A DNA stretch of 64,000 nucleotides, taken from the sequence record SRR20825019_1535. One strand, written 5' to 3'. Below the pieces are notes generated by a model. That model had not been told where the DNA came from. It worked only from the letters and a program-made list of their open reading frames with translations, and made no database searches. Positions 25,305 through 62,358 of this stretch are shown here, piece by piece. Both the position numbers and the translations under genes were made by a program. Within the stretch, counting starts at the first letter, position 1; each line of letters opens with the position of its first letter.

Positions 25305-25416
25305 GTCTGTCTCCTGGGCCTTCCACGGCATTATGCCTTGGACCGGTGCGTTGCGCTCTCGTCACCGAACGGAAGACCGTGCCCTGATCACACCCCGGAT
25401 CAAGGCGGGCGACGAT

Positions 25417-25620
25417 GCTGACGGCAGGTCTCCTGGCTCGCGGGTCATCACGTTCTGTCCGCCTTCCCGGATGCAGGAAATCCTGCGTCCAGTGGCTTCG
25501 GGACAGACCGCTCGCCGGCTACAGTTGCGGGGGCAGCCGCGGCTTGATCCGGCAGACACGCCGAACCGACCGCGTTCCCTTTTGATCCCCCCTCCGAGTT
25601 GAAGGGCGGGAACCGTCAGC
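25417..25620 (-). ncRNA. cobalamin riboswitch
   Basis: Minus strand shows AAAAGGGAAC, GCCCCCGCAACTGT, GCCACTG, GGGAAGG and the B12 box GAGCCAGGAGACCTGCC, closed by GCTGACGG/CCGTCAGC; directly upstream of cobW. Confidence 0.95.
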
Positions 25621-25749
25621 AAATCTCTTGTCGGACGGCGTGGGGGCAGTGTCAAGGGAGCGCGTCGACGGAGAGGCTGAAATCGGCTATATTCATGCCT
25701 ATATCGAAGGGAAGCCCCGCTTCGGCGGGCCGAAACCGGACATCCAGAA

Positions 25750-46129: not shown

Positions 46130-47665
46130 CTATGTCTGACTTTGTGTGTATCCACGAATATTGTGTATCGCAAATATTTTTGATGAAATTCGATCTCTGG
46201 TAAATTCAAAATCATTTTGAAGTTGTTCTTCAACTGATTGATCATTCGTTTTTATAGAATAAGCTTGAAGAATTTTCGGCTCGCCAAGAAATATTTTAAG
46301 TTTTTTTCCTTCTTGTATTTTTTCTGTCACTGGGCGACGTATTATAGAAAAGCAAACGCTGTCTGCGAATGGCTCAACAATCGAATATACGAAATCTTCT
46401 ATTTTCATTAGAGGTTCTGTATGTGTATCCGCATCAGTGTTAAGGGCAATGTCGATACTAAAAGATGGCTGATCAACAAGAGATTTTATTTCGATTAATC
46501 TAAATAAATCAGAAAATATTCCGTGTGCGCTTATTTCTACATCTGCTTTAAAGTGTGTTCGAAAAAAATGACAAATTTTTTTGAGGGTATTCCATGTTTC
46601 AATAGACTCTGAGTCATTAATTTTAATTTCTGCGCCGAGAATTCGTTTTTCCTCAATCCATAACTGAATGTCTACAGGGCCGTCATGGAACCATTTCATT
46701 ATAGTCGAGAAATTCTCTAGATCCATAATTTTTATTGATTTATTGGATTCGAATTCAATATAAAAATCAGATTTTTCATCGAGTCGCCATAGAATTTCGA
46801 GAAAAACAGCGGAAATACGGATTATCTTAAATCGATCGTCAAATTTACCCAGACCAGTTGAAAAAACCTGACCATCTAAAGAGACAGATTGGAGGGAATT
46901 TATTCCACGAAAGTCGATTCTGCATTCTGTCGGAGGTACTGGGCCAATGCTGGCGGTGCCTCCTTTAAATTCGATGAGAGGAAATTTATTGGAAAGTCCA
47001 AACCTAGAAGGTGTGAAGGTGAATTTCTCAATTTCTATAGGCTTTTCAATTCCAAGTAATTGTTTAATAAATCTATCTTCATCTTTCATGGAAAAAGTAA
47101 TGTTGCCATTTCCATATCCGTCCTCATATCCTAGGATTTCAGCATATTTTCTCTTTTTTATGTTGTAGAGTGAGCCGTGTTGAGAAATAATTTTTTCCAT
47201 CCAATCAAGTAAATCATATGTATGATCGTCTTTATCGTCGAATCGAAGATTGATATATTTTCGATTTAATCTGTGCCCTTCGATATCTGCTTGGCGCACG
47301 GCCTTAAGACTCTTGTAAATCAAATCATCCCAATAATGTAATGCATATATTTTTAATTCATGATCCTTGGGTTGATGGAAGAGAATTATAAACCAAGGAT
47401 CGTCGTGCTGGCTGGATTGTCTCGCGTTGGTGAGTTTTATTCGCGTTTGGCGAGCGACTTGGGTAGTAGATTTGATTTGAACATAGGCCCGACTTCCGGC
47501 CGGCATGCTCTCTGCGGGTCCAGAATACTCATTGGTCGGAAACTCCACCAAAAAATCCCAAGCCATCTCGTCTTCAGTGGCTGAATGGCAAAGAACTCCG
47601 GCCTCAGAACACATCGTTGCGAATTGTCTTTCACTTGCCTTAGGGCCTCTGCGAAGACGAGTCAT
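46130..47665 (-). CDS. AT-rich protein with an N-terminal PD-(D/E)XK-like (DUF4365-like) nuclease motif
   Basis: E..F...(DEMAW)DFLVEF...YVQIKST; composition far more AT-rich than the flanks; RBS AGAGG before ATG 47665. Confidence 0.65.
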   Translation of the reverse strand: MTRLRRGPKASERQFATMCSEAGVLCHSATEDEMAWDFLVEFPTNEYSGPAESMPAGSRAYVQIKSTTQVARQTRIKLTNARQSSQHDDPWFIILFHQPKDHELKIYALHYWDDLIYKSLKAVRQADIEGHRLNRKYINLRFDDKDDHTYDLLDWMEKIISQHGSLYNIKKRKYAEILGYEDGYGNGNITFSMKDEDRFIKQLLGIEKPIEIEKFTFTPSRFGLSNKFPLIEFKGGTASIGPVPPTECRIDFRGINSLQSVSLDGQVFSTGLGKFDDRFKIIRISAVFLEILWRLDEKSDFYIEFESNKSIKIMDLENFSTIMKWFHDGPVDIQLWIEEKRILGAEIKINDSESIETWNTLKKICHFFRTHFKADVEISAHGIFSDLFRLIEIKSLVDQPSFSIDIALNTDADTHTEPLMKIEDFVYSIVEPFADSVCFSIIRRPVTEKIQEGKKLKIFLGEPKILQAYSIKTNDQSVEEQLQNDFEFTRDRISSKIFAIHNIRGYTQSQT

Positions 47666-47681
47666 TTCCTCTCTCATCCCT

Positions 47682-50062: not shown

Positions 50063-50253
50063 GGGAAATTCCGATCCCGGAAATGGTGTCTCGGAATAAG
50101 AACGGCCCAGCACGGGAAATCCGTCGCGGGCACGCGGTGCAAAAGTGCGTGACGCGGCTATTTCCCGTCCGGCTTCTTCAGCGCCCGCCGTCCGAAATCC
50201 TGAGAAGCTGGTCTGCGGTGTCAAACCCGGAGTGACCTCTCCAGGTGCTGACG

Positions 50254-50293
50254 GCCGAATAGGCCGTCAAGCCCTGCCGGGTGGGAAGCGGTC
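50254..50293 (+). repeat. 40-bp direct repeat, copy A
   Basis: gccgaataggccgtcaagccctgccgggtgggaagcggtc; 36/40 identical to 53435-53474. Confidence 0.9.
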
Positions 50294-50427
50294 AGACGGC
50301 GCACCCGTTAAGCGTTCGTTTCGATCGGCAGGCGCGTGCACCCAAAGTTTCCGATCCCGTCGGCGCGCAGAATGTCGGAGTTGGCGGTGACAGCCTCTTC
50401 CCAAAAATTGGCGCCACCATTCTCGAT

Positions 50428-50556
50428 CTACTCACCGAGGTTGCCGAGTGCTGGCACGATGGCGTTATTGAAAAAGGATTCGATCGTCATGCCGAGCTTC
50501 GACGTAAGTACGTCGGCATAGTAGTTCTTCCAGGAAGCGTCGACGGATGCGTGCAT
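50428..50556 (-). pseudogene. truncated paralog of the 60567-60925 gene
   Basis: MHASVDASWKNYYADVLTSKLGMTIESFFNNAIVPALGNLGE* versus YADVSAARHGKTIQSFLDDVTLPAI (11/25 identical). Confidence 0.6.
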
Positions 50557-50874
50557 TTTAGCCGGATAATATGGCCGCCGTTTCGGGTCAACGCGCCTTC
50601 TAAGATAGCAAATTGGGGGGAGTGGGTAGCTTCAACTATATCCCACCGAACGTCTTCCGGATGGCCTCATCCACGGCATCAGAAGGCAGGCCGCATCCAG
50701 GTCACGGCGCCTACCTTCCTGCTGCCCCGACGGTCAAGCTGCCGAAGTGGTTAGACCTCGACCACCACGCCGACCGCACGCGCGCACGACAGTGTGCAGG
50801 GGCTAATTTGGGCAATGGGTGGAAGGGGAGGCTGTGGCCTTCCCATGCTGACCCCTCTTCAGGCGCTACGCGGT

Positions 50875-53145
50875 TTACCTGGCGGATACGGGAAGAACCT
50901 GCCCACCAGCTTCAAGAATGGCATCCCTCAAGATGTCGTGCAGTTGGTCTAAAAAAGCTCGAGCATCAGAGCTCATTGCAGCGCTGATACGCGGGGCTGC
51001 ATGATCATGAATTTCCTCGATTACTCGAGAGCGTTTTCCTGCCGAGCCGGGGCCACTGAAATCGTACGCATCACGCCAACTTCCTACCTGCTCATCTGTA
51101 AGTCGATTTTTGGTGAGCCGAGACAGCTCCTTGAACACGGCTTCTCGAATGGCATCCAATGCGATCTCGCGCTCATCATCGTTCTCGGGTTGCCTCGTCC
51201 AGCCGGCCGGCCGGTCCAGCCACTTGGAAGCTTCTTCCTGAAGGCGCGCGAGCAAGTCCGCGACGGGTGTCAGTGTATCGTACTCGTCCGCCCAACAGTT
51301 GGCCAACCTCCGACTGAGAGCCTTGATACGTGTCCAGTGCTCCTTAGAAATGCCGTCGTGATAGGAAAGACCGAGCCTTGCACCCCAAGGATCCCTAAAT
51401 GCATCGATGGCGTCATGCATGGCGATTTCAAGCCCCTTAAACTCATACATCGGACTGCAGTCCGTTTTCTCGATGGGTTCGATTGCGCGCTGCATCATGT
51501 CGATGAGGCGAGCGAGTTCGCGCTTGAAGCCGCCGGGTAATTTCGCAGTTCTGCGGTCCAATCCACCTAGAAAAATAGAGTGGCCATCAACTTGGCGTTC
51601 AATTGCACCGGCGACGCCAGAGCCGACTACGTCTCGCAGGCTTGCGACGGCATTACCGACCGACCCAAGGACGTGATCTCGCTTCTGTTCGAAGGACCCG
51701 AGATTGGGCCCTTTGACCTGATCGAAGTGGGTAAAGGCGATGGCCAGCTTCCTTGCGAAACCAGAGCTGCCGACCGAACGCAGCAGAGCCAACGGAGCAG
51801 CCTGCATAGGCTGCTGCGCATTGTCGACCAAGAGAACCATGTCGACGCTCGCGAACTTCTTGGTGATGCGTGTTGAAACGGACGACACGCTCGTTGCGGT
51901 GTGTCCGAGCCCCTGACCGTCGAGCAATACCAGCTGAGGATCGTCGCTGACTCCAGAGAGTTCGGGAAAGAGCGGCCCCTTCACCCTAATCCCATCCACA
52001 ATCGGCGTGAGGAGGCGCCCAAACTGCTTGTGATGATTGCTCGAGAACCAACGGACAGCAGAAAGGAAATGATCGCGATCATCGGCCTCCATCGTCCAGA
52101 GGAGTGGCCAGTCAGTCGACGACCTTTGCAGCTCACCTTCCTCGATCCTGGAAAATCGATCGGCGATTTCCTCCATTATGTCCAAGGCCAAGTTCGAGAA
52201 TTGCGAGTGCTTGAACGCTTCGACACCGAACAGCTCCAGCCAGGTCGCCCTATCATCGGCGGTTTTCTGGTCGGCGATCTTGCCGAGGCTACCGGCGAAC
52301 TGTTCCTCCACCTCCGCCGTCAGCGCAATGATCCGGTTAACGAAGTCCTTGAGTCGAGCATGGTTTTGTTCCTGCTCCTCGGGCGGAACCGCTTCGGCCT
52401 CATCAATTTCAGCGGCAGTGTCCTGTTCGTCATCGAACGAGAAGTCGTCGTCTTCCATCGCCGCTGCGCCGGTCCAGCCACCAAGAACATATGACAGTCG
52501 GAACCGCTGCTCACGATGCTCAAGGAGTGCGGCTGCGATCTTGCCGCTCCGTTTCTTCTGGACTGCCTCGAGGCAGGCTTCCTCAAGGCATTCGTCGATA
52601 TGTGCACGGACCTCTTGCTCCGGCATGAACGTGACAGCGGCCATGTAGCCACCAGGTGCGGTGACGATCTCAAAATCAGCGGTGGTCGTCTTAGCGGTCG
52701 ACGTGGACGGGAAGCGGTCCGCTTCAGGGTCAGAACCGATTACGTGCCTGAGTAGAGTTGTCTTTCCAGCACCTGTTGTGCCGAGGAACAACACGGTGCT
52801 GTAGCCTTCGCTGGCATCGGGAAGCGGAATCACTTCGCCACGCCTTGCTTCTGGATCGACACGTAACACCTCGATCCCGTCGAAGAAGGCCGAAACAACA
52901 ACTGGAGCATACCGGACTTCTGCGTCGCCGCGACGGTCACCACTCCACCAGGATCCGTCACATAGGAGCTCATTCAGTTGGGCAACGAGGCGATCCGCCT
53001 CTGCTTCGTCACTCGTGCCGAGACCTCGCCGAACTTTGAGGCCACGCCCGCCGCGACTGTCAGATCTTACAGGATGGCGAAATGTGACGCTCCACCCGGG
53101 GCGGTTGGAGCGTGATTTCGATGCGGTAAACGATTTCTCGGCCAT
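50875..53145 (-). CDS. large P-loop GTPase (dynamin-like) with an N-terminal integrase-arm-like domain
   Basis: G1 GTTGAGKT, G2 T in STAKTTT, G3 DGQG, G4 THFD; helical C-terminus; N-terminal WSVTFRHP...VRRGLGTSDEAEA. Confidence 0.7.
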   Translation of the reverse strand: MAEKSFTASKSRSNRPGWSVTFRHPVRSDSRGGRGLKVRRGLGTSDEAEADRLVAQLNELLCDGSWWSGDRRGDAEVRYAPVVVSAFFDGIEVLRVDPEARRGEVIPLPDASEGYSTVLFLGTTGAGKTTLLRHVIGSDPEADRFPSTSTAKTTTADFEIVTAPGGYMAAVTFMPEQEVRAHIDECLEEACLEAVQKKRSGKIAAALLEHREQRFRLSYVLGGWTGAAAMEDDDFSFDDEQDTAAEIDEAEAVPPEEQEQNHARLKDFVNRIIALTAEVEEQFAGSLGKIADQKTADDRATWLELFGVEAFKHSQFSNLALDIMEEIADRFSRIEEGELQRSSTDWPLLWTMEADDRDHFLSAVRWFSSNHHKQFGRLLTPIVDGIRVKGPLFPELSGVSDDPQLVLLDGQGLGHTATSVSSVSTRITKKFASVDMVLLVDNAQQPMQAAPLALLRSVGSSGFARKLAIAFTHFDQVKGPNLGSFEQKRDHVLGSVGNAVASLRDVVGSGVAGAIERQVDGHSIFLGGLDRRTAKLPGGFKRELARLIDMMQRAIEPIEKTDCSPMYEFKGLEIAMHDAIDAFRDPWGARLGLSYHDGISKEHWTRIKALSRRLANCWADEYDTLTPVADLLARLQEEASKWLDRPAGWTRQPENDDEREIALDAIREAVFKELSRLTKNRLTDEQVGSWRDAYDFSGPGSAGKRSRVIEEIHDHAAPRISAAMSSDARAFLDQLHDILRDAILEAGGQVLPVSAR

Positions 53146-53148
53146 GAC

Positions 53149-53230
53149 GTTGTTCTCCGTTGTTCCGAAGCTAACCTTCTCTCACGCTTACGCGTCGCGG
53201 TCAATTTTTTTTGGAACAACATGGAACAAC
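53149..53230. promoter_or_regulatory. two inverted pairs of GAACAAC boxes upstream of the GTPase gene
   Basis: gttgttctccgttgttcc (53149-53166) and ggaacaacatggaacaac (53213-53230). Confidence 0.55.
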
Positions 53231-53410
53231 GACTTGCCGCTTGGCTCTCTAAGATAGCATTCGATGCCCTCCCCTCGCGGAACTATCTTCGTCGCTGTCC
53301 GTCACCGACCCGCACAGTGAGGTGTGCCCGAGTGCGTGCCGGCCGCTACAAGCTCAGTCACCAGGGAATTGCGGTGACACGCGACTTAACTCCCAATCAT
53401 CGACGGTTAG

Positions 53411-53476
53411 ACGACCGCTTCGGGTCGACCGCCAGCCGAATAGGCCATCCGGCCCTGCAGGGTGGGAAGCGGTCGT
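53411..53476 (+). repeat. 66-bp site with perfect 11-bp terminal inverted repeats (contains repeat copy B)
   Basis: acgaccgcttc ... gaagcggtcgt; includes 53435-53474; left arm matches 61572-61587 at 15/16. Confidence 0.85.
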
Positions 53477-53889
53477 TGCCGCAAACGATAGATACATCGA
53501 AGTGTTGCTCAGCCCTCGCCGACCTATCTGCCCAACAAGGCAGCTTCGATCTCACCAGGGAGATGGATCAGCTGAGCTACTGCCCGGAAGCTGAACAGTG
53601 ACGGAAACTATGGCATGAGGTCTGCTGATCTTCGAGAGAGGAGATCTGACGTGACCGTAATTCGTTTGTAAGCATACAGGGGGAGTCCGGTACGGAAACC
53701 CCGAAGCCGGCCAACCCGACGTGGGTCTCGTGAAGCTCATGGTGCTGATGCTGGAGTGCTTCATCGCCGCAGATCGCGGCTTTGCAAAGGCGCGGCGGCA
53801 AGACAAGACGAGAGTTTCTCTCTGAGAGCTGCCGTTGCAGACCCATGATTTTATGTGCCATACTCATTAAATCATGGGTGTCAGGCACA

Positions 53890-54180
53890 GTGACCTACGA
53901 CGATTTCATCACCGAACTGAACAAGGCGGGGCTTACCGTCCGGCGCTTCGCCCATCTTATGGGAATGCAACCAAACTCAATCTCAAACAATAAGAAGAAG
54001 GGCGAGATTCCCGATCATCTCGGGGTTATTGCGAGCCTCCTCGCCGTGATGTCAAACCATGAAATTAACTTCGAAGCGACCTTCGCGCGGCTCGAACCCA
54101 GGCTAAAGAAGCCGCGGGGGGCTTCCAAACCCGGCAAATTTGCGGGAGACCCGCAGGGTGTACTGGAGCTGAGAAAATGA
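53890..54180 (+). CDS. small XRE-like HTH regulator
   Basis: MTYDDFITELNKAGLTVRRFAHLMGMQPNSISN; GTG start; directly upstream of the MTase. Confidence 0.7.
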   Translation: MTYDDFITELNKAGLTVRRFAHLMGMQPNSISNNKKKGEIPDHLGVIASLLAVMSNHEINFEATFARLEPRLKKPRGASKPGKFAGDPQGVLELRK

Positions 54181-54273
54181 TGCGTCAGACGCGCCCTTGC
54201 AGTGCTTTGTTCTTTATTTGTTCCACCCCCTGCGCTATGTCTGCATATCTCAAGCGCCAACGGGGGGCAGGGC

Positions 54274-57200
54274 GTGGCTGATAGTTTTGCGATGCATTGG
54301 CGCGAGGCTCTCGCTCTCGAGCGTCGAGCGGCGCCCGAGTTCTATACCTCCGCCACCGAAGTAGAACCGGGGCCGCATGCGGAAGCGATTCGCTTTGCCT
54401 TGGTCGATCTCGGCTTGGCCGCCGTATTCTGTATCGAGGGGGTTCCGACCATCGGCTTCCTAAATCAGCCAGATGTTTTGCCTGCCCGTATAGACGAATT
54501 GCACCGCATCCTCTGGAATCAGGGATTAATGAGTTTGTTGCTGGTCCTCAAAGAGGAGGAACTGGTGGCCTACTCCTTGGTCCAGCGGCCGTTCCAGCAC
54601 AAAGTGGGGCAGCGAAACGACCCGCGGCTAATCACAACTCTTTCGCTTCTTTCTGACGCGATAGCGCTTCGTGAACTGCTCGACTCTACCGAGTCGGGGC
54701 GCTTTTGGTTCGAGAACGACAAGTTCTTCAATCCGGAGGATCGGGTCGACAGTGTCCTGCTCTCAAACCTGCTTGAAGCTTTTCGCGACATGCGCGACGA
54801 CCTTGGTGGGGAGGCCGCCCAAGCACTTTTGATGCAAACCATGTTCATCGCATATCTTGAGGATCGAAAGATCCTCAAGGAAGCGGTGTTCCAAGAAGCG
54901 TCCAACAAGACATGCTCCAGTCTTGCGGAGATGCTTGCGGCAGAGTCCCCAGGACATTTCGAGTCCCTGTTCGTATGGCTAAAAGGAGCATTTAACGGAA
55001 ACCTGTTCAACGCGCCTTGCGCCTTCGAAATGGATAATGCAGCGCCCCCGAAACTGGCCGTAAGACACCTGCAAACGCTCGCGCGGTTTCGGCATGGTCG
55101 GGAGGAAATGGCTTCTGGGCAGCTTCGCTTATGGGGCTACGATTTTCGATACATGTCGATCGGCCTCATTAGCGCGGTTTACGACCGCTTTCTGAAGGAA
55201 GAGGCGGAGAAGAAGAGCGCCGATGGCGCATTCTACACGCCGATGTTTTTGGCCGATGTGGTCGTAAACCAGCTATGGGACGATCTCTCCGACGAGCAGC
55301 GGGCCAGCGGGATTTTCTGCGATCCGGCATGCGGGTCGGGGATTTTTCTCGTAAGGCTGTTCCAGCGCCTAGTGGCGCACCACTGCCGTATCAAGAAAAA
55401 GCGTCATGCCACATGGGAAGAGTTGAAAGCCATCGCTCATCGCCTGCATGGGGCAGACATCAACCCCTCGGCTGTCCGGGTGGCAGCTTTTTCTCTGTAT
55501 ATAGCGCTGCTCGAACAGTCCAATCCGCCCGTTCTGCCGGCCCTCATCGACGCAGGCAAGCTTCTGCCATCGCTCTATGGAGATACCCTCCTTCCTGCAT
55601 GCGACTTCTTTGCGGCTGATGAGCGACCCAAATATGATGCGGTCATTGGCAACCCGCCTTGGAAGGGGCGCAGTGGTCAGGTCACGACGGCCGAGACCTG
55701 GGCAAAGACACATCGCTACCCTCATCCTGCCAAGGACATTGCTTGGGCGTTCGTCTGGAAAGCTCTTAATGTCGTTAAGCCGGACGGGCATATAGCCTTC
55801 CTGCTGCCAGCAATGGGTATTTTGCATAATACTTCGCGCGAGGCACAAGAGGCTCGGCGGCGGCTCCTTCGGGAAGCCCGAGTTAAACGGATCATCAACC
55901 TATCGGACCTTTGCTTCCAATTGTTCGATGGGGCCCAGAGACCGACGGCATTTGTGCTTTACACGCCTTCAGGCGACGATCTCCCCTATCGATTCGAATA
56001 CTGGGTGCCGAAGGCTGATCTTAACCTGCGGCTCAAGCGCCTGATGACACTGTCGCGTGCCGACCGTATCAGGTTCCGTTCCGATTTGGTCGGAAAGGAT
56101 CCCACGCTGTTCAAGCGCCGTCTTTGGACTCGGTCGCCAGATGAAAAGCTGCTGCAATATTTACGGACTATTCCATCGTTGAATACGTTCATTCGTGAAT
56201 ACAGGGAGATCCACCGGACAAGAGTCGTGATGAACCGGGCAACTGACTGGGTAATTGGACAAGGGTTCAAGCCGGCGCAGGAAGAACGACTAGACGACCC
56301 GGATTACGAGACAACGACAAGTGAAAGCGTGACTCGCTATCGGTATATGGACGCCCGCGCGTTCCGCACGATAGCGTTGCCGCCGATTGACGCTGATCCC
56401 TGGCCGACGTCGGTCGTTCATCGTCCCGGATTTGCTGAAGGATTTACGGGTCCCCATATCTTGATCCCTCAGGGTGTCGAGCGTTCAATTGGGCGCGCTC
56501 GCGCAGCTTATTCCGAGCAGAGCTTGACATTTGAGCACTCACTGCAGGCTATAGCCGTTCCTGAAACGGAACGACGGAAGGCAAAGGTACTGACGGCTGT
56601 CCTGAATAGCAGCCTTGCCGCATGGGTATATTTTCATGATACGGCTAACTTGGGAGCAGACCGTGCGAAGATTCATCAGGGCGAATTGCTCAAGCTGCCG
56701 TTTGACGTGCCTGAGAACATGCCGGACCCCATACGAGCGACTGAGGCGGAAGAGAAAATCGTTCAGTTAGTCGATCGCCAAATTGCAAACGCGAACGAAC
56801 TCCTGTCGATGGAATCGACTCCTCTCGATGAGATCGATCATCTGGTTTTTGATTATTACGGGCTTGATGCGCGAGAGATCGCACTCATCGAGGATACCTT
56901 CCGCTACATTATTCCAGCGATGCAGCCGCGGCGTAGAGCAGGGTTGCAGAAGATCTGGACCAACAGCGACGTTGAGCATCGATCCGACTACGCATCCATG
57001 CTGTGCGATGCTCTCGAACCGTGCTTCCGGCAGAGTATTAGCGCTTCGCTCGCTGCGAAGTCAGCGGACGTTGCAGTTCTCAAACTGACGATCAGCGACG
57101 AATCTAGCAATTATAGGGAGGAGGCGTCATCCGAGTTTGGAAGATTCCTTCAGTCCATAAAGGACAACCTGCCTATGCCCCTGCCTGGAAATGTGCAGTT

Positions 57201-57372
57201 GGTGCCGGACCTTTGCTTCGTAATCGGAGCCGACATGTACCTCGTAAAACCGATGCAATTGCGGCATTGGCTGAGGTCGACGGCACTCGCTGATGCAGAG
57301 CAAATCACGGCCGAGTTCAGCGCAGCGGTTGCGCGCCATAGCCAGGGCGGTTATGCGTATGCTGACTGGTAG
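54274..57372 (+). CDS. large N6-adenine DNA methyltransferase (Eco57I/type IIG-like architecture)
   Basis: GAFYTP, motif I DPACGSGIF, motif IV NPPW, C-terminal TRD-like region (AVLNSSLA). Confidence 0.88.
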   Translation: MADSFAMHWREALALERRAAPEFYTSATEVEPGPHAEAIRFALVDLGLAAVFCIEGVPTIGFLNQPDVLPARIDELHRILWNQGLMSLLLVLKEEELVAYSLVQRPFQHKVGQRNDPRLITTLSLLSDAIALRELLDSTESGRFWFENDKFFNPEDRVDSVLLSNLLEAFRDMRDDLGGEAAQALLMQTMFIAYLEDRKILKEAVFQEASNKTCSSLAEMLAAESPGHFESLFVWLKGAFNGNLFNAPCAFEMDNAAPPKLAVRHLQTLARFRHGREEMASGQLRLWGYDFRYMSIGLISAVYDRFLKEEAEKKSADGAFYTPMFLADVVVNQLWDDLSDEQRASGIFCDPACGSGIFLVRLFQRLVAHHCRIKKKRHATWEELKAIAHRLHGADINPSAVRVAAFSLYIALLEQSNPPVLPALIDAGKLLPSLYGDTLLPACDFFAADERPKYDAVIGNPPWKGRSGQVTTAETWAKTHRYPHPAKDIAWAFVWKALNVVKPDGHIAFLLPAMGILHNTSREAQEARRRLLREARVKRIINLSDLCFQLFDGAQRPTAFVLYTPSGDDLPYRFEYWVPKADLNLRLKRLMTLSRADRIRFRSDLVGKDPTLFKRRLWTRSPDEKLLQYLRTIPSLNTFIREYREIHRTRVVMNRATDWVIGQGFKPAQEERLDDPDYETTTSESVTRYRYMDARAFRTIALPPIDADPWPTSVVHRPGFAEGFTGPHILIPQGVERSIGRARAAYSEQSLTFEHSLQAIAVPETERRKAKVLTAVLNSSLAAWVYFHDTANLGADRAKIHQGELLKLPFDVPENMPDPIRATEAEEKIVQLVDRQIANANELLSMESTPLDEIDHLVFDYYGLDAREIALIEDTFRYIIPAMQPRRRAGLQKIWTNSDVEHRSDYASMLCDALEPCFRQSISASLAAKSADVAVLKLTISDESSNYREEASSEFGRFLQSIKDNLPMPLPGNVQLVPDLCFVIGADMYLVKPMQLRHWLRSTALADAEQITAEFSAAVARHSQGGYAYADW

Positions 57373-58030
57373 TCTGGATCACTGGCTCCGTCACTTCCGA
57401 AGTCTCGAAGAACGGGTCGCTGGCGCGGTTGAGGCCGCATGGCCCATTTGCATTGCACCACTTCAATCGAAGAAGGACGCGATGACTCACGAAGATCACA
57501 TCACTGAGCATCTCGTTCAGTCGTTAATTCAGACGAAATCTCTTCCGGGCCGCATCGTCTATCAATACACCCTGCTCGTCGAGGACGCCGATGGCAATGT
57601 ATCGATGTCGAGCAACGTCGATTTTGTCCTGACCGTCGGCGATGACGAGGATGTCTATCTTGCCTGCGAATGCAAGCGATTGAACGTGCCCTACAAGACA
57701 GGGCTGAGGGGGCTCGTCGGCGAGTATGTAAACGAGGGCCTTATGCGGTTCGTGACTGGGCAGTACTCAAACGGTCTGCCTGTGGCCATGATGCTGGGAT
57801 ATGTAATGAATGCCCGAACGGACAGGGCACGCCGAGGAGTGAAACGCGCTATGGCACTTCGATCTGCAGCCATCCGGCTTCAGTCCGATCAAGATGCCCC
57901 GATCGTGGATGGTCGATCACTGCGTTTCCACACCACGCACTTATGCGTGCCTGGACACACAATAGAAGTAGCTCACACATTTCTAGCATGGGGTTCCGGC
58001 ACCAAATCTGCCGAGAGTGGCGGGAACTGA
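57353..58030 (+). CDS. putative PD-(D/E)XK nuclease coupled to the MTase
   Basis: EDHIT...NVDF...ECKRL; overlaps the MTase stop codon. Confidence 0.6.
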   Translation: MRMLTGSLDHWLRHFRSLEERVAGAVEAAWPICIAPLQSKKDAMTHEDHITEHLVQSLIQTKSLPGRIVYQYTLLVEDADGNVSMSSNVDFVLTVGDDEDVYLACECKRLNVPYKTGLRGLVGEYVNEGLMRFVTGQYSNGLPVAMMLGYVMNARTDRARRGVKRAMALRSAAIRLQSDQDAPIVDGRSLRFHTTHLCVPGHTIEVAHTFLAWGSGTKSAESGGN

Positions 58031-58194
58031 TTGGGAACTTGGGGTCCGGCCGCTTGCCAGTTTGTAGTTGGCGTATTGGGGTTTCTTTACTCGGTTTCCC
58101 AAAAAATATCGGTATAGCTTTTGAGTAATTTCAAATGCCTACATTCTTCCGTAGAAGATAGTATAGAAAGCCCAACGTCGCACTCATCGCGGCG

Positions 58195-59118
58195 TCACCG
58201 GAGGCGATCGAGTAGGGTTTCGACCATTTCCTGGCTTGAGTTTGCGACGATGTCGAGCGGCCGGCCCTCTTGCCTCATCAGCGCGATCAGAAGGCAGGCG
58301 GTGAAGGGCCAGAAGGACGAGTCGGGGGACAGATTGTAGCTGCCGATCAACGCCGTCAGCCGCTCGGCGATCGGCGGGTACTGACGGTTGCCCCAATGCG
58401 CGTAGGTCGGCGTCATCGCGTGTATTGTTACGGCGGCGAGCGCTATTCCCATCGCGCGTTTCTGGTGAACATCGGCATATTGGTGCCCGTGTTCTTTCGC
58501 GTAGGCGGCGAGACCGCTGGTCATGAACTCGCGGGCCCAGATGTCGCAGGCGATTTCCTCTTCTGGCAAGGTAGACGGCGCGTTGTTGTCGGCGCAGAAC
58601 ATAACGTGTCGAAACTCGTGCAGCAGCGCGAAGGCGAGAGCTAACAAGACGAGGTCAAACATCGCCTTGTGCTGCTCATCCCCCAAGCTTTCTCGGTCAG
58701 CGGTCGGTTCTGGGATGTCCGCGGGCCATGAGATTTGCGCGGTCAGTTCAGCAGTGACGAGCGACTGGGCGCTGGCAATGCGTTGCTTATAGTCAAACTC
58801 AAATTGTCCGCGTTCGGCGTCAATGTTGAGCGCCTGATCGAGCGGTATGCCTGTGAGCGTCGCGAGCTCCAGGCCGGGCGAGTAGACCTCGATTGCGTGC
58901 CAGGCGCTGAAACCGAGTAGCCAGAAGAAGTCGATCGTCTTGGTGTCGAACTTGATGCGATTGGCGTCGGCATTCATTGTTGGGCCTTCGGCGCTTGGCG
59001 CGACTTCTACCGCGTGGCCGTATTGGCTCCAAAGGCCGCTGACTTCGTCGGCACGCTCGGGGACGGCGCCGCGCAAGAGGTGAAGGACGATCGTCCGTTC
59101 GGATGGTTCTGTCTTCAT
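58195..59118 (-). CDS. lit: Lit-family (peptidase U49) phage-exclusion zinc protease
   Basis: FALLHEFRH (HExxH) followed by EEEIACD; about 307 aa; RBS AGGAGA. Confidence 0.75.
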   Translation of the reverse strand: MKTEPSERTIVLHLLRGAVPERADEVSGLWSQYGHAVEVAPSAEGPTMNADANRIKFDTKTIDFFWLLGFSAWHAIEVYSPGLELATLTGIPLDQALNIDAERGQFEFDYKQRIASAQSLVTAELTAQISWPADIPEPTADRESLGDEQHKAMFDLVLLALAFALLHEFRHVMFCADNNAPSTLPEEEIACDIWAREFMTSGLAAYAKEHGHQYADVHQKRAMGIALAAVTIHAMTPTYAHWGNRQYPPIAERLTALIGSYNLSPDSSFWPFTACLLIALMRQEGRPLDIVANSSQEMVETLLDRLR

Positions 59119-59167
59119 GCCAGGTAGTTCTCCTGTGATGGGCGACGGTGCCTGTCTGTTGGGCCGA

Positions 59168-60583
59168 TCATGGGGGCTCGCTTTCACTTTTCGCGACGTC
59201 TGTCTTGTCGGGCTCGCCAGCCATGCGCAGATGAGTGATCGACGAAATGACCGAGTTCGCCCACATGGTGCGGCACTCGACATCGCCGCCGCGCTCGAAC
59301 CAATGCGTCGCGCCCGGTATGAGATTGAAGGGAATGGGGTACGTCGCCTTCGGGTTGTGAAAGACCTCCAGCTCCTGACACCATGCTTCGCCCCAAGGCC
59401 AAAGTGCCTGGTATTCGGCGCCGCCGACCGACAGATGGAAGTCAATGGGCTCCAGCGCGCCTGGGGTTCGGTCGAAGAGAATGCCCCGGCGAGTCATCGT
59501 GAGGCCGGGCGGCTGCCATCCGGCGAGAAAGCCCATGCGGTTGAATTTGGCGAGCGTCGCCGCGTTGCTGAAGATGACGGCGGAGAGGTGGGCGAAGTCG
59601 GGATCGCGGAACAGTCCGGCCGGAATGCCGTGCCTTCCCGTAAGGTTGCTGATCGGCGTGCCGACAGCGCGTCGTCCGGCGCCTTCGCCTTCGACATCGG
59701 CCCGCAGGCCGTAGAGATAGGTCGGCAAAGCCTCGCGGCTCCATACCATCGAGCCCGATTCGTGAAAGTCGGCGATCGCCAGCGCGAAGGGCTGACCTTT
59801 CACATGATCCAGCTCATGATAGTTGCGTTGAAGCTTGCTTCGCAGAGTCTTGGCGTAGCGCTCGGCAGGCGCGCCAGTCAGGCGTTCGTTTCGGTCGACT
59901 GGAGCGTGCGCCCAGTCTCCGATCCCGCTGGAGTGCGGCGTCTCGGAGTTCGCGGTCACGGCTTCGACCCAGCAGACGGCGTCGTCGTTTTCGATCAGGA
60001 AGTCGGGCGAGACATGCTTCTGCCTGACGCTCAGGCCTTGCTCGCGGAAGCAAGCCAGAAGGTAGAGTTCGAAGAGCCGGGACGCGAAGTTGTTGGTCTG
60101 CAGATCGGTGACGAAGTTGGCGTCCGGATTGGGAAGGGCGAGGTAGCATTCGTCGATCGCCCTCAGCGCCGGGTAATGGCTGATCGTGCTCGTCAACAGC
60201 TCGAACTCCGGTGATGCCCCGCGCGGGCCGGTCTTCAGTAGAAGCGGGCGCCGCCGCGCGCCCGGGGGCAATGGTTCAGGCGGCTCGCCGGCGCGCATAT
60301 CGAGGCTCAGGTGATCCAGCGCGACCTCGGGCGTGGAATAGGGGCCGCCTTCACTAACGCGGACCCAACGATGATCGACGCGTCGTCGCAAAGCCAATGT
60401 GGTGAAAGTCCCGCGCTCGTGATCGAGGAGGATGCAGCCGCTCGCTCTGCCGCGCCCTACCTGATAGCTCCCGAAGATCCGCGCGGGATCGAAATTGGGC
60501 CCGCGTTCGAGCGACAGCGCGTAAATCTCGAACTGGCGTTGGCTGATTGGTGAGATCAGTCGTTGCTCATCGCCGACGGCCAT
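59168..60583 (-). CDS. hypothetical protein with a PD-(D/E)XK-like motif
   Basis: FASRLFELYL...SPDF...WVEAVT; SAVIFSNAATLAKFNRMG. Confidence 0.65.
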   Translation of the reverse strand: MAVGDEQRLISPISQRQFEIYALSLERGPNFDPARIFGSYQVGRGRASGCILLDHERGTFTTLALRRRVDHRWVRVSEGGPYSTPEVALDHLSLDMRAGEPPEPLPPGARRRPLLLKTGPRGASPEFELLTSTISHYPALRAIDECYLALPNPDANFVTDLQTNNFASRLFELYLLACFREQGLSVRQKHVSPDFLIENDDAVCWVEAVTANSETPHSSGIGDWAHAPVDRNERLTGAPAERYAKTLRSKLQRNYHELDHVKGQPFALAIADFHESGSMVWSREALPTYLYGLRADVEGEGAGRRAVGTPISNLTGRHGIPAGLFRDPDFAHLSAVIFSNAATLAKFNRMGFLAGWQPPGLTMTRRGILFDRTPGALEPIDFHLSVGGAEYQALWPWGEAWCQELEVFHNPKATYPIPFNLIPGATHWFERGGDVECRTMWANSVISSITHLRMAGEPDKTDVAKSESEPP

Positions 60584-60925
60584 TTTCTACCTCTCGGGTT
60601 GGCAAGCACCCGCCGCGGCATCTCGGGCGCATGATCATGACGCCTGCGCTGCAACCTGAGCCAGGATGTCGTTGGCCTCTCACTCGTCGCCGTGCGGCGC
60701 AATGACGAATTCGCGATCCCAGACGCCCCAAGTTGGTCTCATATAGCAAGTCCTCCATTTCGGATTGCTCGAAGTCAGCCGCCGGCTCGTCACTCTCCCA
60801 GCGATCCGCTCCTTGACCTTCCGGATCGCTGGGAGAGTGACGTCGTCGAGAAACGATTGAATCGTTTTACCGTGCCGTGCCGCCGAGACATCGGCATAGC
60901 AGAATTGCCGGCGAAACGGCGTCAT
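60567..60925 (-). pseudogene. frameshifted/deleted hypothetical gene
   Basis: Starts with an ATGA overlap on the upstream stop; homologous-looking pieces in two frames (YADVSAARHG...; EMEDLLYETNL; PHGD). Confidence 0.55.
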
Positions 60926-61494
60926 CGGACTCGCTCCGCCGCTTCCGCGATCATGTCGCGATAGGCATATGTGATGAGATCTCGGATTAGCTCGAGAAGT
61001 CCGCCGACCGGCAATCCGTCAAACGGATCGCCGTGCGCTGCCAAATTTCGGCGGTCCGATAGGCTCGGTTTGGTCTCGCCGGTCAGTTGTCCGATCGCCG
61101 TCCCATCGCAGCGAACGACCATCGGTATGGCTTCGTCAGTGAGACCGTCGACCTCGACCATGTGTTTTAGGAGAACGGACAGACTCCGCTGCCTCTTCCG
61201 GTACAGATGTCCGTAACGGTCGGTCACTGCCAGTTCGAGCGCAGTAAGCGCGACGAGCTCAGCCGCCTTGATTAGATCGGTGTCGAACCATGCGAGCAGG
61301 TAGAGCTTCTGGGCACGCAGATACTTGAGATGAACGATTTCGGGGACGAAGGGACTGAGAGACAGGCCGTCGACGGCATCGCGCCAGCTTTGTGCATCTT
61401 CGAACGCGAGCAGTGCCCCTGGTGCCCCAGGTTTGGGCCAAGGGACCACCAAGGGGACCTTGCGAGGTGGCAGTTCGTGGAATGCGCTCGCCAT
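60922..61494 (-). CDS. HEPN-like protein
   Basis: Helical; ALTALELA motif and C-terminal RRNLAAHG (R-X4-H). Confidence 0.6.
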   Translation of the reverse strand: MASAFHELPPRKVPLVVPWPKPGAPGALLAFEDAQSWRDAVDGLSLSPFVPEIVHLKYLRAQKLYLLAWFDTDLIKAAELVALTALELAVTDRYGHLYRKRQRSLSVLLKHMVEVDGLTDEAIPMVVRCDGTAIGQLTGETKPSLSDRRNLAAHGDPFDGLPVGGLLELIRDLITYAYRDMIAEAAERVR

Positions 61495-61536
61495 TTTGGC
61501 CCCTTTCGACTGACGATCGTCTCATAGACCTCCGGT

Positions 61537-61587
61537 GACCGCAATTGGTCAAACGTCGGAGATACATCGGGCGACCGCTTTGGGTCG
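61537..61587. repeat. site upstream of the recombinase
   Basis: gaccgcaattggtc (61537-61550) and cgaccgctttgggtcg (61572-61587; 15/16 identical to 53412-53427). Confidence 0.65.
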
Positions 61588-61664
61588 CGTGTTGCCAAGA
61601 TGAGCGTGAAGGCATTGAATCCCGTGACAGGAGGGAAGGAGCATTCTTTTGAGAGGATGCGACG

Positions 61665-62300
61665 ATGCTTACCGACCATGATGATTTTGGAAGTTCCTCA
61701 CTGCGTACACCCTGGAACAAGGGAAGATTGGTCGGCCAGAAGCGGCCACTCAAGCCGAAGGATGTCTGGTCAATCCGGGTGAGGCTTGAGATAGCGGGGA
61801 GCTTGCGTGACCTCGCTTTGTTCAATCTCGCTATCGACAGCAAGCTGCGGGCTTGCGACCTGGTGAGCCTGCGGGTCGATGATATTCTGTCCGACGGTCG
61901 TATTCGCGAGCGCACGACAGTTGTTCAACAGAAGACCGCACGTCCTGTCCAGTTTGAGATGACAGCGGCAACCCGGAACGCACTGGCCGCATGGATAGAC
62001 CAAGCCGGACGACGTCCCGGCGACTATCTCTTCATCAGCCGGCTCCGCAAGAGCGCTCACTTGTCGACGCGCCAATACGCCCGGATTGTACATGGCTGGG
62101 TCGAGAGCGCCGGTCTCGATAGCTCGGCTTATGGGACGCACACCATGCGCCGGACCAAAGCGGCTCAGATTTACCGGAAGACTGGTAACCTACGCGCCGT
62201 TCAGCTTCTCCTCGGTCACACAAAGCTTGAGAGCACGGTGCGCTACCTCGGCATAGAGGTCGAAGACGCATTGGCGATATCAGAGCAGGTCGAATTATGA
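61665..62300 (+). CDS. short tyrosine recombinase/integrase (catalytic domain only)
   Basis: 211 aa; KLRACDL (R), HTMRRTK (HxxR), LLGH, TVRYL (Y). Confidence 0.92.
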   Translation: MLTDHDDFGSSSLRTPWNKGRLVGQKRPLKPKDVWSIRVRLEIAGSLRDLALFNLAIDSKLRACDLVSLRVDDILSDGRIRERTTVVQQKTARPVQFEMTAATRNALAAWIDQAGRRPGDYLFISRLRKSAHLSTRQYARIVHGWVESAGLDSSAYGTHTMRRTKAAQIYRKTGNLRAVQLLLGHTKLESTVRYLGIEVEDALAISEQVEL

Positions 62301-62307
62301 GGAACAG

Positions 62308-62335
62308 CCGCCGCTCGTGATACTGTGAGCGGCGG
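62308..62335. terminator. hairpin between the convergent integrase and MFS genes
   Basis: ccgccgctc-N10-gagcggcgg. Confidence 0.5.
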
Positions 62336-62358
62336 TCCTCATCCTGAGTGTATCCCGG

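Follow-up and report, generated by a model that had tools for sequence, protein, structure and literature searches.

How did unrelated anti-phage genes come to lie side by side, in both orientations, near one end of this DNA? From 50.3 to 62.3 kb of the window, by which we mean the whole 64,000-nt stretch that was analyzed, the GC content is ~0.56 versus 0.65, and this island ends with the gene of a short tyrosine recombinase. A sequence-only reading had proposed a distinct gene-capture system that stockpiles anti-phage modules at repeated sites. We consider the island to be probably a short array of modules bounded by recombination sites of widespread ~200-aa recombinases, with an exchange of modules that would be integron-like without the array being an integron. 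The proposed capture system agrees with the sites, their clustering and the breakpoints described below, but three of its sites and its restriction to defence cargo did not hold. The genes of the island are as follows.

50286..50428, minus strand: frameshifted remnant of a PD-T7-1 paralogue, covering about aa 197-243 and truncated at the junction with the right arm of site L
50875..53145, minus strand: P-loop NTPase, 756 aa, in the module between sites L and M (weak matches only: AAA_22 2.9e-4, MMR_HSR1 6.7e-3, PADLOC mad8 1.6e-4)
53782..54180, plus strand: ORF, 132 aa (no Pfam match at E 0.01; weak PHROG transcription-regulator matches, E 0.0035-0.0098)
54202..57372, plus strand: type IIG restriction enzyme-methyltransferase, 1056 aa (PADLOC REase_MTase_IIG 2.7e-87; Pfam N6_Mtase, Eco57I and TaqI_C)
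57293..58030, plus strand: ORF, 245 aa (no match in Pfam, PADLOC, NCBIfam or PHROGs)
58195..59118, minus strand: Lit-type phage-exclusion protease (NCBIfam PRK09672 4.1e-57, PADLOC Lit 1.3e-16, Pfam Peptidase_U49); the start at 59118 was picked by eye, and the ORF as listed extends to 59445
59168..60583, minus strand: PD-T7-1 defence protein, 471 aa (PADLOC PD-T7-1 1.9e-85, almost full length)
60680..61494, minus strand: two small ORFs of 81 and 190 aa, divergent from the recombinase gene (no family matches in Pfam, PADLOC, NCBIfam or PHROGs)
61665..62300, plus strand: tyrosine recombinase, 211 aa, consisting of the catalytic domain preceded by a short, basic N-terminal part

These assignments sharpen the earlier ones. 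Lit had been recognized correctly, the methyltransferase is more precisely a type IIG restriction-methylase, and the supposed nuclease at 59168-60583 is PD-T7-1. The protein called a GTPase is indeed a P-loop NTPase, but its family matches go no further, and the HEPN and XRE proteins had no Pfam match in the small ORFs. Judging from its weak matches, the 132-aa ORF upstream of the restriction gene might encode a small transcription regulator. The remnant aligned with the intact PD-T7-1 in tblastn (15/20 and 25/64 identities), and at the DNA level 50287-50344 is 78% like 59857-59914. Homologues of the NTPase, 40-54% identical, were found in 6 of 401 alphaproteobacterial genomes (7 loci), and none of the 7 loci had a site within 1.5 kb; therefore, the modules do not bear sites wherever they are present. 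The notion of an anti-phage stockpile fits the cargo here (type IIG restriction-modification, Lit and PD-T7-1), but the system is not specific to defence: elsewhere the cargo includes iron uptake, catabolic operons, metal resistance, acetyltransferases and regulators.

Three sites divide the island.

50254..50293, plus strand: site L, partial, with the inner part and right arm (…GGGTGGGAAGCGGTC) and without left arm or centre; identical to 53435-53474 at 36 of 40 positions
53410..53476, plus strand: site M, full, 66 nt, with left arm and centre GACGACCGCTTCGGGTCG, an inner part of 35-40 nt and the inverted right arm GAAGCGGTCGT; matrix score 21.3 bits
61534..61593, plus strand: site R, composite, with an accessory copy GGTGACCGCAATTGGTCA and a core GGCGACCGCTTTGGGTCG 36 nt further on; 15.8 and 21.5 bits

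The 40-nt direct repeat of L and M, reported from the letters alone, was found again (2 matches versus 0 expected from 100 shuffles), and so was the perfect 11-nt inverted repeat ACGACCGCTTC/GAAGCGGTCGT that frames the copy at 53411-53476. The predicted hairpin there is also supported by calculation: the single-stranded fold has -21.9 kcal/mol (z -2.96), and 1 of 200 shuffles was as good. The left arm of M, CGACCGCTTCGGGTCG at 53413, recurs with 15/16 identity at 61573, with GACCGCAATTGGTC 36 nt before it, and forms site R, 72 nt upstream of the recombinase start. M and R are full family sites in direct orientation that enclose an 8.1-kb defence block (type IIG restriction-modification, Lit, PD-T7-1 and small ORFs), while M and the partial L have the inner part and right arm in common and enclose the 3.2-kb NTPase module.

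We scored the window with a position-weight matrix derived from the upstream regions of 82 recombinase relatives. Between 50200 and 62400, the only matches of at least 10 bits were at 53410 (21.3), 61534 (15.8), 61570 (21.5) and 61727 (17.5), the last on the minus strand within the 5' coding sequence of the recombinase; the remaining 52 kb of the window had no match of at least 16 bits. A degenerate copy proposed at 50771-50830 and weaker ones near 58035 and 60595 scored below 10 bits, and the segment 50760-50840 folded no better than shuffles (z +0.69). Because these extra sites fall below 10 bits, the finer partition proposed before is reduced to three blocks bounded by verified sites: the NTPase; the type IIG enzyme with Lit, PD-T7-1 and the two small ORFs; and the recombinase.

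The 40-nt inner part brackets only 50254-53474, has no copy past the recombinase and was not found in the 87 loci searched. M-like copies of the same layout occur in other contexts, in the sequencing run X8 (loose ends 53429 and 53474) and on contig C4 of the close relative G137, and the 36-nt spacing of R is seen also in composite sites of G137 and of another relative, G001. The similarity of L and M begins (50254/53435) only past the GGGTCG centre of M, at a distance of 7-13 nt, and a single crossover point therefore fails to explain L, M and R together. A classical integrative island is flanked at its two outer ends by att sequences in direct repeat, frequently located within a tRNA gene. 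Rfam and tRNA scans gave nothing at the sites and no tRNA or tmRNA gene in the 64 kb, and the 40-nt repeat does not lie at both outer ends; a tRNA-targeted island was thus rejected. The sole Rfam match in the window is a cobalamin riboswitch at 25406-25632.

The 211-aa protein matches the Pfam Phage_integrase family (PF00589; 83.5 bits against a cut-off of 27.1) over residues 44-195. Judging from an alignment to XerA (4a8e) and from motif positions, it has all six catalytic residues (R62, K90, H159, R162, H185 and Y194), by which the enzyme looks intact. The integron-integrase models scored far under their cut-offs (TIGR02249 26.1 versus 265; PRK15417 22.2 versus 435) and aligned with residues 130-197 only, in agreement with the initial view that this is not IntI; in the alignment to XerA, 211 aa are too few to accommodate a core-binding domain or the IntI-specific insertion. 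It also fails the XerC (68 versus 335.15) and XerD (49.8 versus 329.6) models. More than 574 relatives with 63-80% identity were found in Alpha-, Beta- and Gammaproteobacteria in one-genome-per-species collections, and 207 plasmid records carry the family at 60% identity or more. The family, widespread and consisting of the catalytic domain only (~200 aa), is apparently described nowhere in the literature we found; our search, which covered mainly literature outside subscription journals, returned no account of the recombinases, the sites or such arrays.

In these relatives, the recombinase is accompanied by sites of one family, with the consensus AACGTCCGCTTTGGGCCGGAAGCA. A site reads as an imperfect palindrome: the conserved left arm ACGNCCGCTT is followed by a centre that differs between lineages (TGGGTCG in the window; CTGGCCG or TGCGCCA in others) and, in some sites, by GAAGCGGNC as an inverted right arm. 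Often a further, accessory copy of the left arm lies 36 nt upstream, and some relatives have arm-centre-arm palindromes, such as GGCCGCTTCTGGCCGGAAGCGGCC in locus L042. The tie of recombinase to sites that had been suggested for this locus was seen across the family: a '+' site of at least 14 bits lay within 300 nt upstream of the recombinase in 39 of 74 loci versus 0-6 of 47-72 in control windows, which lessen but do not remove the circularity arising from a matrix trained on the same upstream regions. This upstream cognate site consists of the left arm ACGNCCGCTT and a TGGGTCG or CTGGCCG centre. Downstream, an inverted '-' site lay within 300 nt in 25 of 75 loci (controls, 0-4 of 41-68). Sites of at least 18 bits numbered 114 in 1.155 Mb of loci and 3 after local shuffling. 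There was a weak tendency for sites to have the same centre type as the recombinase-proximal one (42 of 84 versus 32.5 +/- 5.3 expected), and 80 of 2000 shuffles reach 42.

Genome-wide counts come from the genomes of relatives, not from the window's own. In G001 (5 Mb), CCGCNNTGGGTCG had 29 matches versus 11 for the control, and 14 of the 29, all on the plus strand, fall in 73 kb around the sole intact recombinase gene; by the matrix, this array comprises 16 places with 29 '+' and 4 '-' matches. The 544-kb Agrobacterium plasmid pAtNT1RE has 13 of its 43 matches of at least 13 bits in a single 20-kb bin, forming a site array without a recombinase. In G137 the pattern gave 15 matches versus 5 for the control, 3 of them on the same strand of the recombinase contig. 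A looser CTGGCCG-type pattern stayed at control level in 4 of 5 genomes, and CCGCTNNTGGCCG was dropped as a search motif for being too near the coding background. Instead of scattering genome-wide, which had been named beforehand as speaking against the proposal, the motif forms oriented clusters around or near the recombinase; the objection of genome-wide scatter fails because the sites are tied to the recombinase, clustered and situated at gene-content breakpoints. We likewise rejected a REP-like dispersed repeat, which would have many copies throughout the genome, given the 29 matches versus 11 in G001, half of the 29 in one array, the 15 versus 5 in G137, and the remaining 52 kb of the window free of matches of at least 16 bits.

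As had been predicted, gene content changes at the sites between related replicons. In four Agrobacterium pAt plasmids, blocks end in or at sites (a slash marks the end of the block): GTGCGC/CAGAAGCGGTCATT, CCGCTT/TGCGCCAATTGCGG, …CAGAAGCGGTCA/ and /GTCTCCTTCGGGCCGA. In G137, the left flank is 92.7% identical up to 50293, the last base of L, and then diverges; site L is kept, and the next gene is another defence gene, a PDC-S28 helicase. L marks the left edge of the variable region. A module of aldolase, GMC, TauD and LysR genes is common to G001 and G137 (77.8% over 4,284 nt) with sites on both sides in each, and an extra WGR and mer block in G137 ends at a 25.2-bit site. The G001 and G137 C4 arrays have a partial order in common, and therefore inheritance of entire islands also occurs.

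At the right end of the island, the recombinase itself is the unit.

61575..62346, plus strand: recombinase cassette, 772 nt, the sole island DNA common to the relative G137
62308..62335, no strand assigned: hairpin with 9-bp stem CCGCCGCTC/GAGCGGCGG and 10-nt loop, at the right end of the cassette

In G137 the 772 nt are 97.9% identical, with a 100% identical protein and no similarity on either side, and they sit on a different contig, inside a metal-resistance island. The left end of the cassette falls within the R core. At the right end, where conservation in G137 includes the hairpin and reaches 62346, the matrix scan of the window found no site of 10 bits or more. The recombinase gene is itself a cassette and not a fixed platform gene. 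By eye only, the arms of the hairpin are similar to the site arms.

A conserved left flank with different defence cargo in G137 is also what known hotspots look like. Accordingly, the island could be an ordinary defence hotspot or integrative island whose parts were brought in separately, either by a classical integrase or through homologous recombination in flanking DNA; L, M and R would then be leftover att fragments, with no ongoing exchange. The low GC over 50.3-62.3 kb with a recombinase at one end, the partial array synteny between genomes and the identity of the island in five runs would all suit this, yet we think it unlikely. A tRNA or tmRNA target is lacking; the site nearest the recombinase separates it from the cargo instead of marking the outer end; the 40-nt repeat encloses the NTPase module alone, and this module brings no integrase; and a single recombinase lies amid 16 same-strand sites in G001. 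Moreover, the unit common to G137 is the recombinase alone, and the flank similarity stops to the base at the end of an element that is also found inside the island.

As for the five sequencing runs, they contain the island with all sampled words, and therefore no variation is seen among those isolates. Contigs of four runs at low depth contained no joints of L, M and R, and such contigs cannot show absence. The plasmid collection had no near match to the island, with flank matches of 72-78% only. A metagenome scan with the MFS protein found no empty site; its sole close match was L088 (98.6%), a contig of the same species that stops within the recombinase gene. The additional 9.7 kb of L088 beyond the window had neither a site reaching 12 bits nor synteny with G137.

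The inverted downstream sites in 25 of 75 relatives, together with inverted repeats of 30-100 nt around the gene in about 14 of 77 loci, bring up a still less probable explanation. Here the only substrates of the recombinase would be the inverted sites that flank its own gene, making it a self-inverting switch or FimB-like invertase, or a plasmid multimer resolvase; the other copies would be terminator- or REP-like hairpins, whose similarity allows homologous recombination to shuffle the neighbours. The enzyme has the size of FimB and a weak match to a tyrosine-type DNA invertase (1.6e-10), the family is common on plasmids, and an inverted site-like sequence lies at 61727 in the 5' coding region. 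On the other hand, the invertase models are far under their cut-offs (PRK09871 40.8 versus 222; PRK09870 21.8 versus 221), the sites are direct, not inverted, in the window and in G001, and 13-40 nt in common are short for homologous recombination. Breakpoints fall in the site centre, and a genome has only a small number of sites, in clusters, which sets them apart from REP elements. We also rejected, as extremely improbable, a true integron (an IntI integrase and attC cassettes), which the locus resembles only in its general layout of a tyrosine recombinase beside a site and site-bounded genes: the IntI models, the lack of space in 211 aa and the multi-gene modules in both orientations speak against it, and no GTTRRRY core was read in L, M or R, just as the sequence-only reading had said.

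We return to the preferred reading, an array of modules exchanged between sites. From the sequences we infer that recombination occurs, presumably catalyzed by the 211-aa enzyme, with strand exchange and hence the crossover point inside the site centres; the substrate might be double-stranded DNA or a folded single strand. Between directly repeated sites, a module would be freed as a circle able to enter another site, whereas inverted sites would give inversion. Occasional use of look-alike secondary sites could truncate genes and may account for the PD-T7-1 fragment at L. Should modules indeed be moved by the recombinase in this way, genes would be captured and shuffled widely by a route that escapes present-day finders of integrons and mobile elements, and the swaps of defence genes at this locus between close relatives would be explained; such a small recombinase with a short site might also be of interest as a tool. 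A broader proposal, which could equally turn out right or wrong, is that of a second, integron-independent gene-cassette system in Proteobacteria, including Alphaproteobacteria, which lack integrons, and intensively studied replicons like Agrobacterium At plasmids, in which a catalytic-domain-only recombinase, itself a sub-kilobase cassette, moves modules of one to several genes (defence, metal resistance, catabolism) between arrays via short imperfect-palindrome sites.

Integrons use the IntI integrase with its specific insertion and attC sites with RYYYAAC / GTTRRRY cores that recombine as a folded single strand; their cassettes are mostly promoterless, carry a single ORF and lie in one orientation downstream of attI/Pc. 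Like them, the present system places a tyrosine recombinase beside a primary site and forms arrays of exchangeable genes delimited by sites; its cargo is of cassette type (acetyltransferases, small regulators and defence), and the site is able to form a hairpin, as computed for M; arrays without a recombinase, as on pAtNT1RE, are similar to CALINs. Unlike them, it has a ~200-aa recombinase with neither a core-binding domain nor the IntI insertion, which scores below the IntI cut-offs, a different site consensus without the GTTRRRY core, modules of one gene to about 14 kb in both orientations with their own regulators, and a recombinase gene that is itself a cassette, often between inverted sites. 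It is also present in Alphaproteobacteria, and site-bounded module swapping that resembles integrons seems to take place in bacteria without integrons as well. Cury et al. (2016, PMC4889954) report no integron, In0 or CALIN in 243 alphaproteobacterial genomes, an absence called "extremely puzzling", for which the present system, if real, would be a concrete candidate explanation.

FimB/FimE invertases are likewise ~200 aa without a separate N-terminal DNA-binding domain and have inverted sites near the gene, but the model match is weak, most arrays here are directly repeated, and content varies by gain and loss, not by promoter inversion. Tandem accretion at one att site also leaves att-like sites repeated between unrelated blocks with a single recombinase; here, however, the blocks have no integrases of their own, as many as 16 sites occur in one array, and sites also delimit the recombinase itself as a unit of less than 1 kb. 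The Xer/dif site has 28 bp, with two 11-bp arms and a 6-bp centre, and the pdif (dif) modules of Acinetobacter plasmids are similarly bounded by short imperfect palindromes of two arms and a centre, related plasmids differing by whole modules. Whereas pdif uses the host XerC/XerD, here the sites have an unrelated sequence and move together with a dedicated short recombinase that fails the XerC and XerD models. IS elements are described as targeting pdif (PMC10132070), and in locus L136 an IS with a 3-bp duplication likewise lies inside a site.

GC content drops from ~0.65 to ~0.56 across ~50.3-62.3 kb of the window, and this island, unchanged across five sequencing runs, contains the following sites and genes.

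Sites and genes of the island, with its neighbours
Left neighbours: fumarase subunits and a small surface-antigen-like gene
50254-50293: partial site L
53411-53476: full 66-nt site M
61534-61593: composite site R
61575-62346: 772-nt cassette holding the recombinase gene
P-loop NTPase, 756 aa: weak family matches only
Small ORF: weak regulator matches
Type IIG restriction-methylase: 2.7e-87
245-aa protein: no assigned family
Lit: 4.1e-57
PD-T7-1: 1.9e-85
Two small ORFs between PD-T7-1 and the recombinase: no assigned family
61665-62300: tyrosine recombinase, 211 aa
Right neighbour: MFS transporter

Read as a small array, this stretch has the order L, PD-T7-1 remnant and NTPase, M, defence block (restriction enzyme, Lit, PD-T7-1 and the two small ORFs), R and recombinase cassette. 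The remnant, 140 nt of a frameshifted PD-T7-1 paralogue (aa 197-243), abuts L, and its final codons continue into the arm sequence GACCGCTTC. Neither the window nor same-species sequence beyond it (L088) showed where the variable region ends on the right, and NTPase homologues elsewhere were site-flanked at 0 of 7 loci. At 4 of 46 metagenome loci found via the MFS transporter (L095, L108, L114 and L118), a recombinase relative (54-72% identity) lies within 10 kb; the transporter gene may itself be array cargo, and no DNA match to it was seen in the genome of a close relative, G137.

The sequence-only reading had proposed a 40-nt direct repeat, a hairpin and a recurrence of its left arm before the recombinase, and all three were borne out. 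The repeat copies (50254-50293 and 53435-53474) are identical at 36 of 40 positions, with two matches found against none expected from 100 shuffles. The second copy sits within M, the ends of which form a perfect 11-nt inverted repeat; when M is folded as a single strand, only 1 of 200 shuffles does as well. The first 16 nt of M recur with 15 matches at 61573, 72 nt ahead of the recombinase start, and are preceded, at a distance of 36 nt, by a weaker copy. L has no left arm, its similarity to M beginning 7-13 nt beyond the centre of M. Copies of the 66-nt unit with the same layout occur in other contexts, namely on contig C4 of G137 and in sequencing run X8, where similarity ends at the identical right limit, 53474. 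Three further suggested copies (50771-50830, ~58035 and ~60595) had to be dropped: all score below 10 bits with the family's position-weight matrix, and the fold of 50771-50830 is no better than chance against shuffles.

The 211-aa recombinase has a PF00589 domain in which none of the six catalytic residues is missing, and is alignable to XerA and XerD in the catalytic domains only, from residue 31 onward, which leaves no space for a core-binding domain. It scores far below the cut-offs of curated models for integron integrases, XerC, XerD and FimB/E-type invertases, in line with the claimed short non-IntI enzyme. Relatives were found in more than 574 stretches among one-genome-per-species contigs, the best 80 of which (63-80% identical) come from Alpha-, Beta- and Gammaproteobacteria, and in 207 plasmid records at an identity of at least 60%. 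On the IncP plasmid pRSB223 (L081), the family recombinase adjoins class 1 integron cassettes and has 59-nt inverted repeats on both sides of its gene, and on the P. aeruginosa megaplasmid pPA942-IMP45 (L082) it adjoins a ptxD-phn phosphite operon.

Sites are enriched beside these genes. A 24-nt matrix (consensus AACGTCCGCTTTGGGCCGGAAGCA) derives from the sequences upstream of 82 recombinase copies and was trained on the regions first scored, distant windows and shuffling serving as the safeguard; with it, a same-strand site was found at most 300 nt upstream of the gene at 39 of 74 loci, compared with 0-6 of 47-72 in windows 1-8 kb off, and an inverted site at most 300 nt downstream at 25 of 75 loci, compared with 0-4 of 41-68. 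Across 80 loci, 114 sites reached at least 18 bits and 3 did so after local shuffling. Inverted repeats of 30-100 nt surround the gene at ~14 of 77 loci, and centre types within a locus agree, but weakly. The codons for LVGQKRPL in the recombinase N-terminus (61727-61750, minus strand) also give an inverted site-like match of 17.5 bits, as in ~12 of 80 related loci. Together with the upstream site it would frame a ~160-bp segment with the promoter and start codon, which could be a self-switch or merely a codon coincidence.

The sites also cluster, against the genome-wide scatter that would have spoken against a link. G001, a 5-Mb chromosome with a recombinase of 83% identity across residues 14-211, has 29 matches to CCGCNNTGGGTCG (11 for the reversed control); 14 lie on one strand in 73 kb around the sole intact recombinase gene, and the remaining 15 are dispersed over the two strands. 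With the matrix, this array has sites at 16 places, mostly composite, their two copies spaced by 36 nt like those of R, parting modules of 0.6-14 kb; those annotated (a histidine kinase, a FecIR-TonB iron operon, the recombinase with an HTH gene, an aldolase-GMC-TauD-LysR operon and an RTX protein) include no known defence genes. A second, broken recombinase copy (G001:C1:4782649-4783130) lies ~19 kb to the left of the array's first detected site, and the array may once have been longer. On the 544-kb Agrobacterium plasmid pAtNT1RE, which has no recombinase of the family, a single 20-kb bin contains 13 of the 43 matches that reach 13 bits (mean 1.6 per bin). G137 has 15 pattern matches (control, 5), three on the same strand of the recombinase contig. 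A looser CTGGCCG-type pattern stayed at control level in four of five genomes, and in the fifth gave 7 matches within 12 kb of the recombinase gene.

Gene content changes at the sites between related strains. Four At plasmids of Agrobacterium have the blc/att operon and avhB genes in common and differ between them by one- and two-gene modules (acetyltransferases, MgtC, OsmC, MarR-SDR, MFS-NUDIX and, in one plasmid, the recombinase). Four block ends fall in or at sites, and the fifth difference between the plasmids comes from an insertion sequence within a site, with a 3-bp duplication. As sites occupy, by rough arithmetic, ~1-2% of the compared sequence, such coincidence by chance is unlikely. 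This insertion sequence (L136, 14087-16549) has a transposase, terminal inverted repeats and a duplicated GGC, lies exactly inside its site and carries or adjoins a methyltransferase, recalling insertion sequences that target attC or pdif sites.

G137 matches the left flank of the window at 92.7% up to 50293, the last base of L, which is kept; beyond it come an 824-aa PDC-S28 helicase, a 21.7-bit site, a composite site (36-nt spacing) and genes of native GC, and the recombinase is absent from this locus. Its recombinase, 100% identical in protein, lies on another contig in a low-GC copper/mercury island, which has only 61575-62346 in common with the window (772 nt, 97.9%). The left end of this cassette lies within the core of R, and its right end, which follows a conserved hairpin, has only that arm-like hairpin. 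Since the identity of the cassette exceeds that of the core flank, it points to recent movement. In G137, the cassette end is followed by an extra WGR and mer block and then by a 25.2-bit site. The aldolase-GMC-TauD-LysR module, common to G001 and G137 (77.8% over 4,284 nt), has sites on both sides in each, and arrays also travel as whole islands.

Taken together, it is rather likely that the sites are the recombination sites of this family and bound exchangeable modules, which the recombinase would swap between them. Such a system would work like integrons and like pdif modules, yet be a member of neither. Several results sit less well with it: L without a left arm, the hairpin-only right end of the cassette, NTPase homologues not flanked by sites, the weak agreement of centre types, whole-island travel and the invariance over five runs; low-depth contigs of four runs also showed no recombination product joining L, M and R. 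Of the anti-phage stockpiling that had been claimed, defence cargo is present in the window and at the corresponding locus of G137; in other places the cargo is any accessory genes. Full-text searches of a literature set without most subscription journals, and excerpts of two tyrosine-recombinase surveys (PMC8138268 and PMC3414803), gave no description of the recombinase family, sites or arrays, and an earlier published description is possible. One of the two surveys covers 1,309 proteins from plasmids, phages, prophages, conjugative transposons and genomic islands, and excerpts of it mention proteins of at least 280 aa for one plasmid only. An excerpt of Cury et al. 2016 (PMC4889954) gives 243 alphaproteobacterial genomes without integron, In0 or CALIN, an absence termed "extremely puzzling".

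Three other features of the window were recorded. A 515-aa ORF of 37% GC (46130-47677, minus strand) with a weak DUF4365 match under the cut-off (2e-4) lies between genes of 62-66% GC and has a counterpart of ~82% identity at the same place in G137. An inverted repeat with perfect 21-nt arms around a 13-nt loop (60788-60842) lies within an 81-aa ORF (60680-60925); either this ORF is spurious or the repeat is a regulatory or terminator element. A cobalamin riboswitch (25406-25632, minus strand, 119.5 bits) is unrelated to the array.
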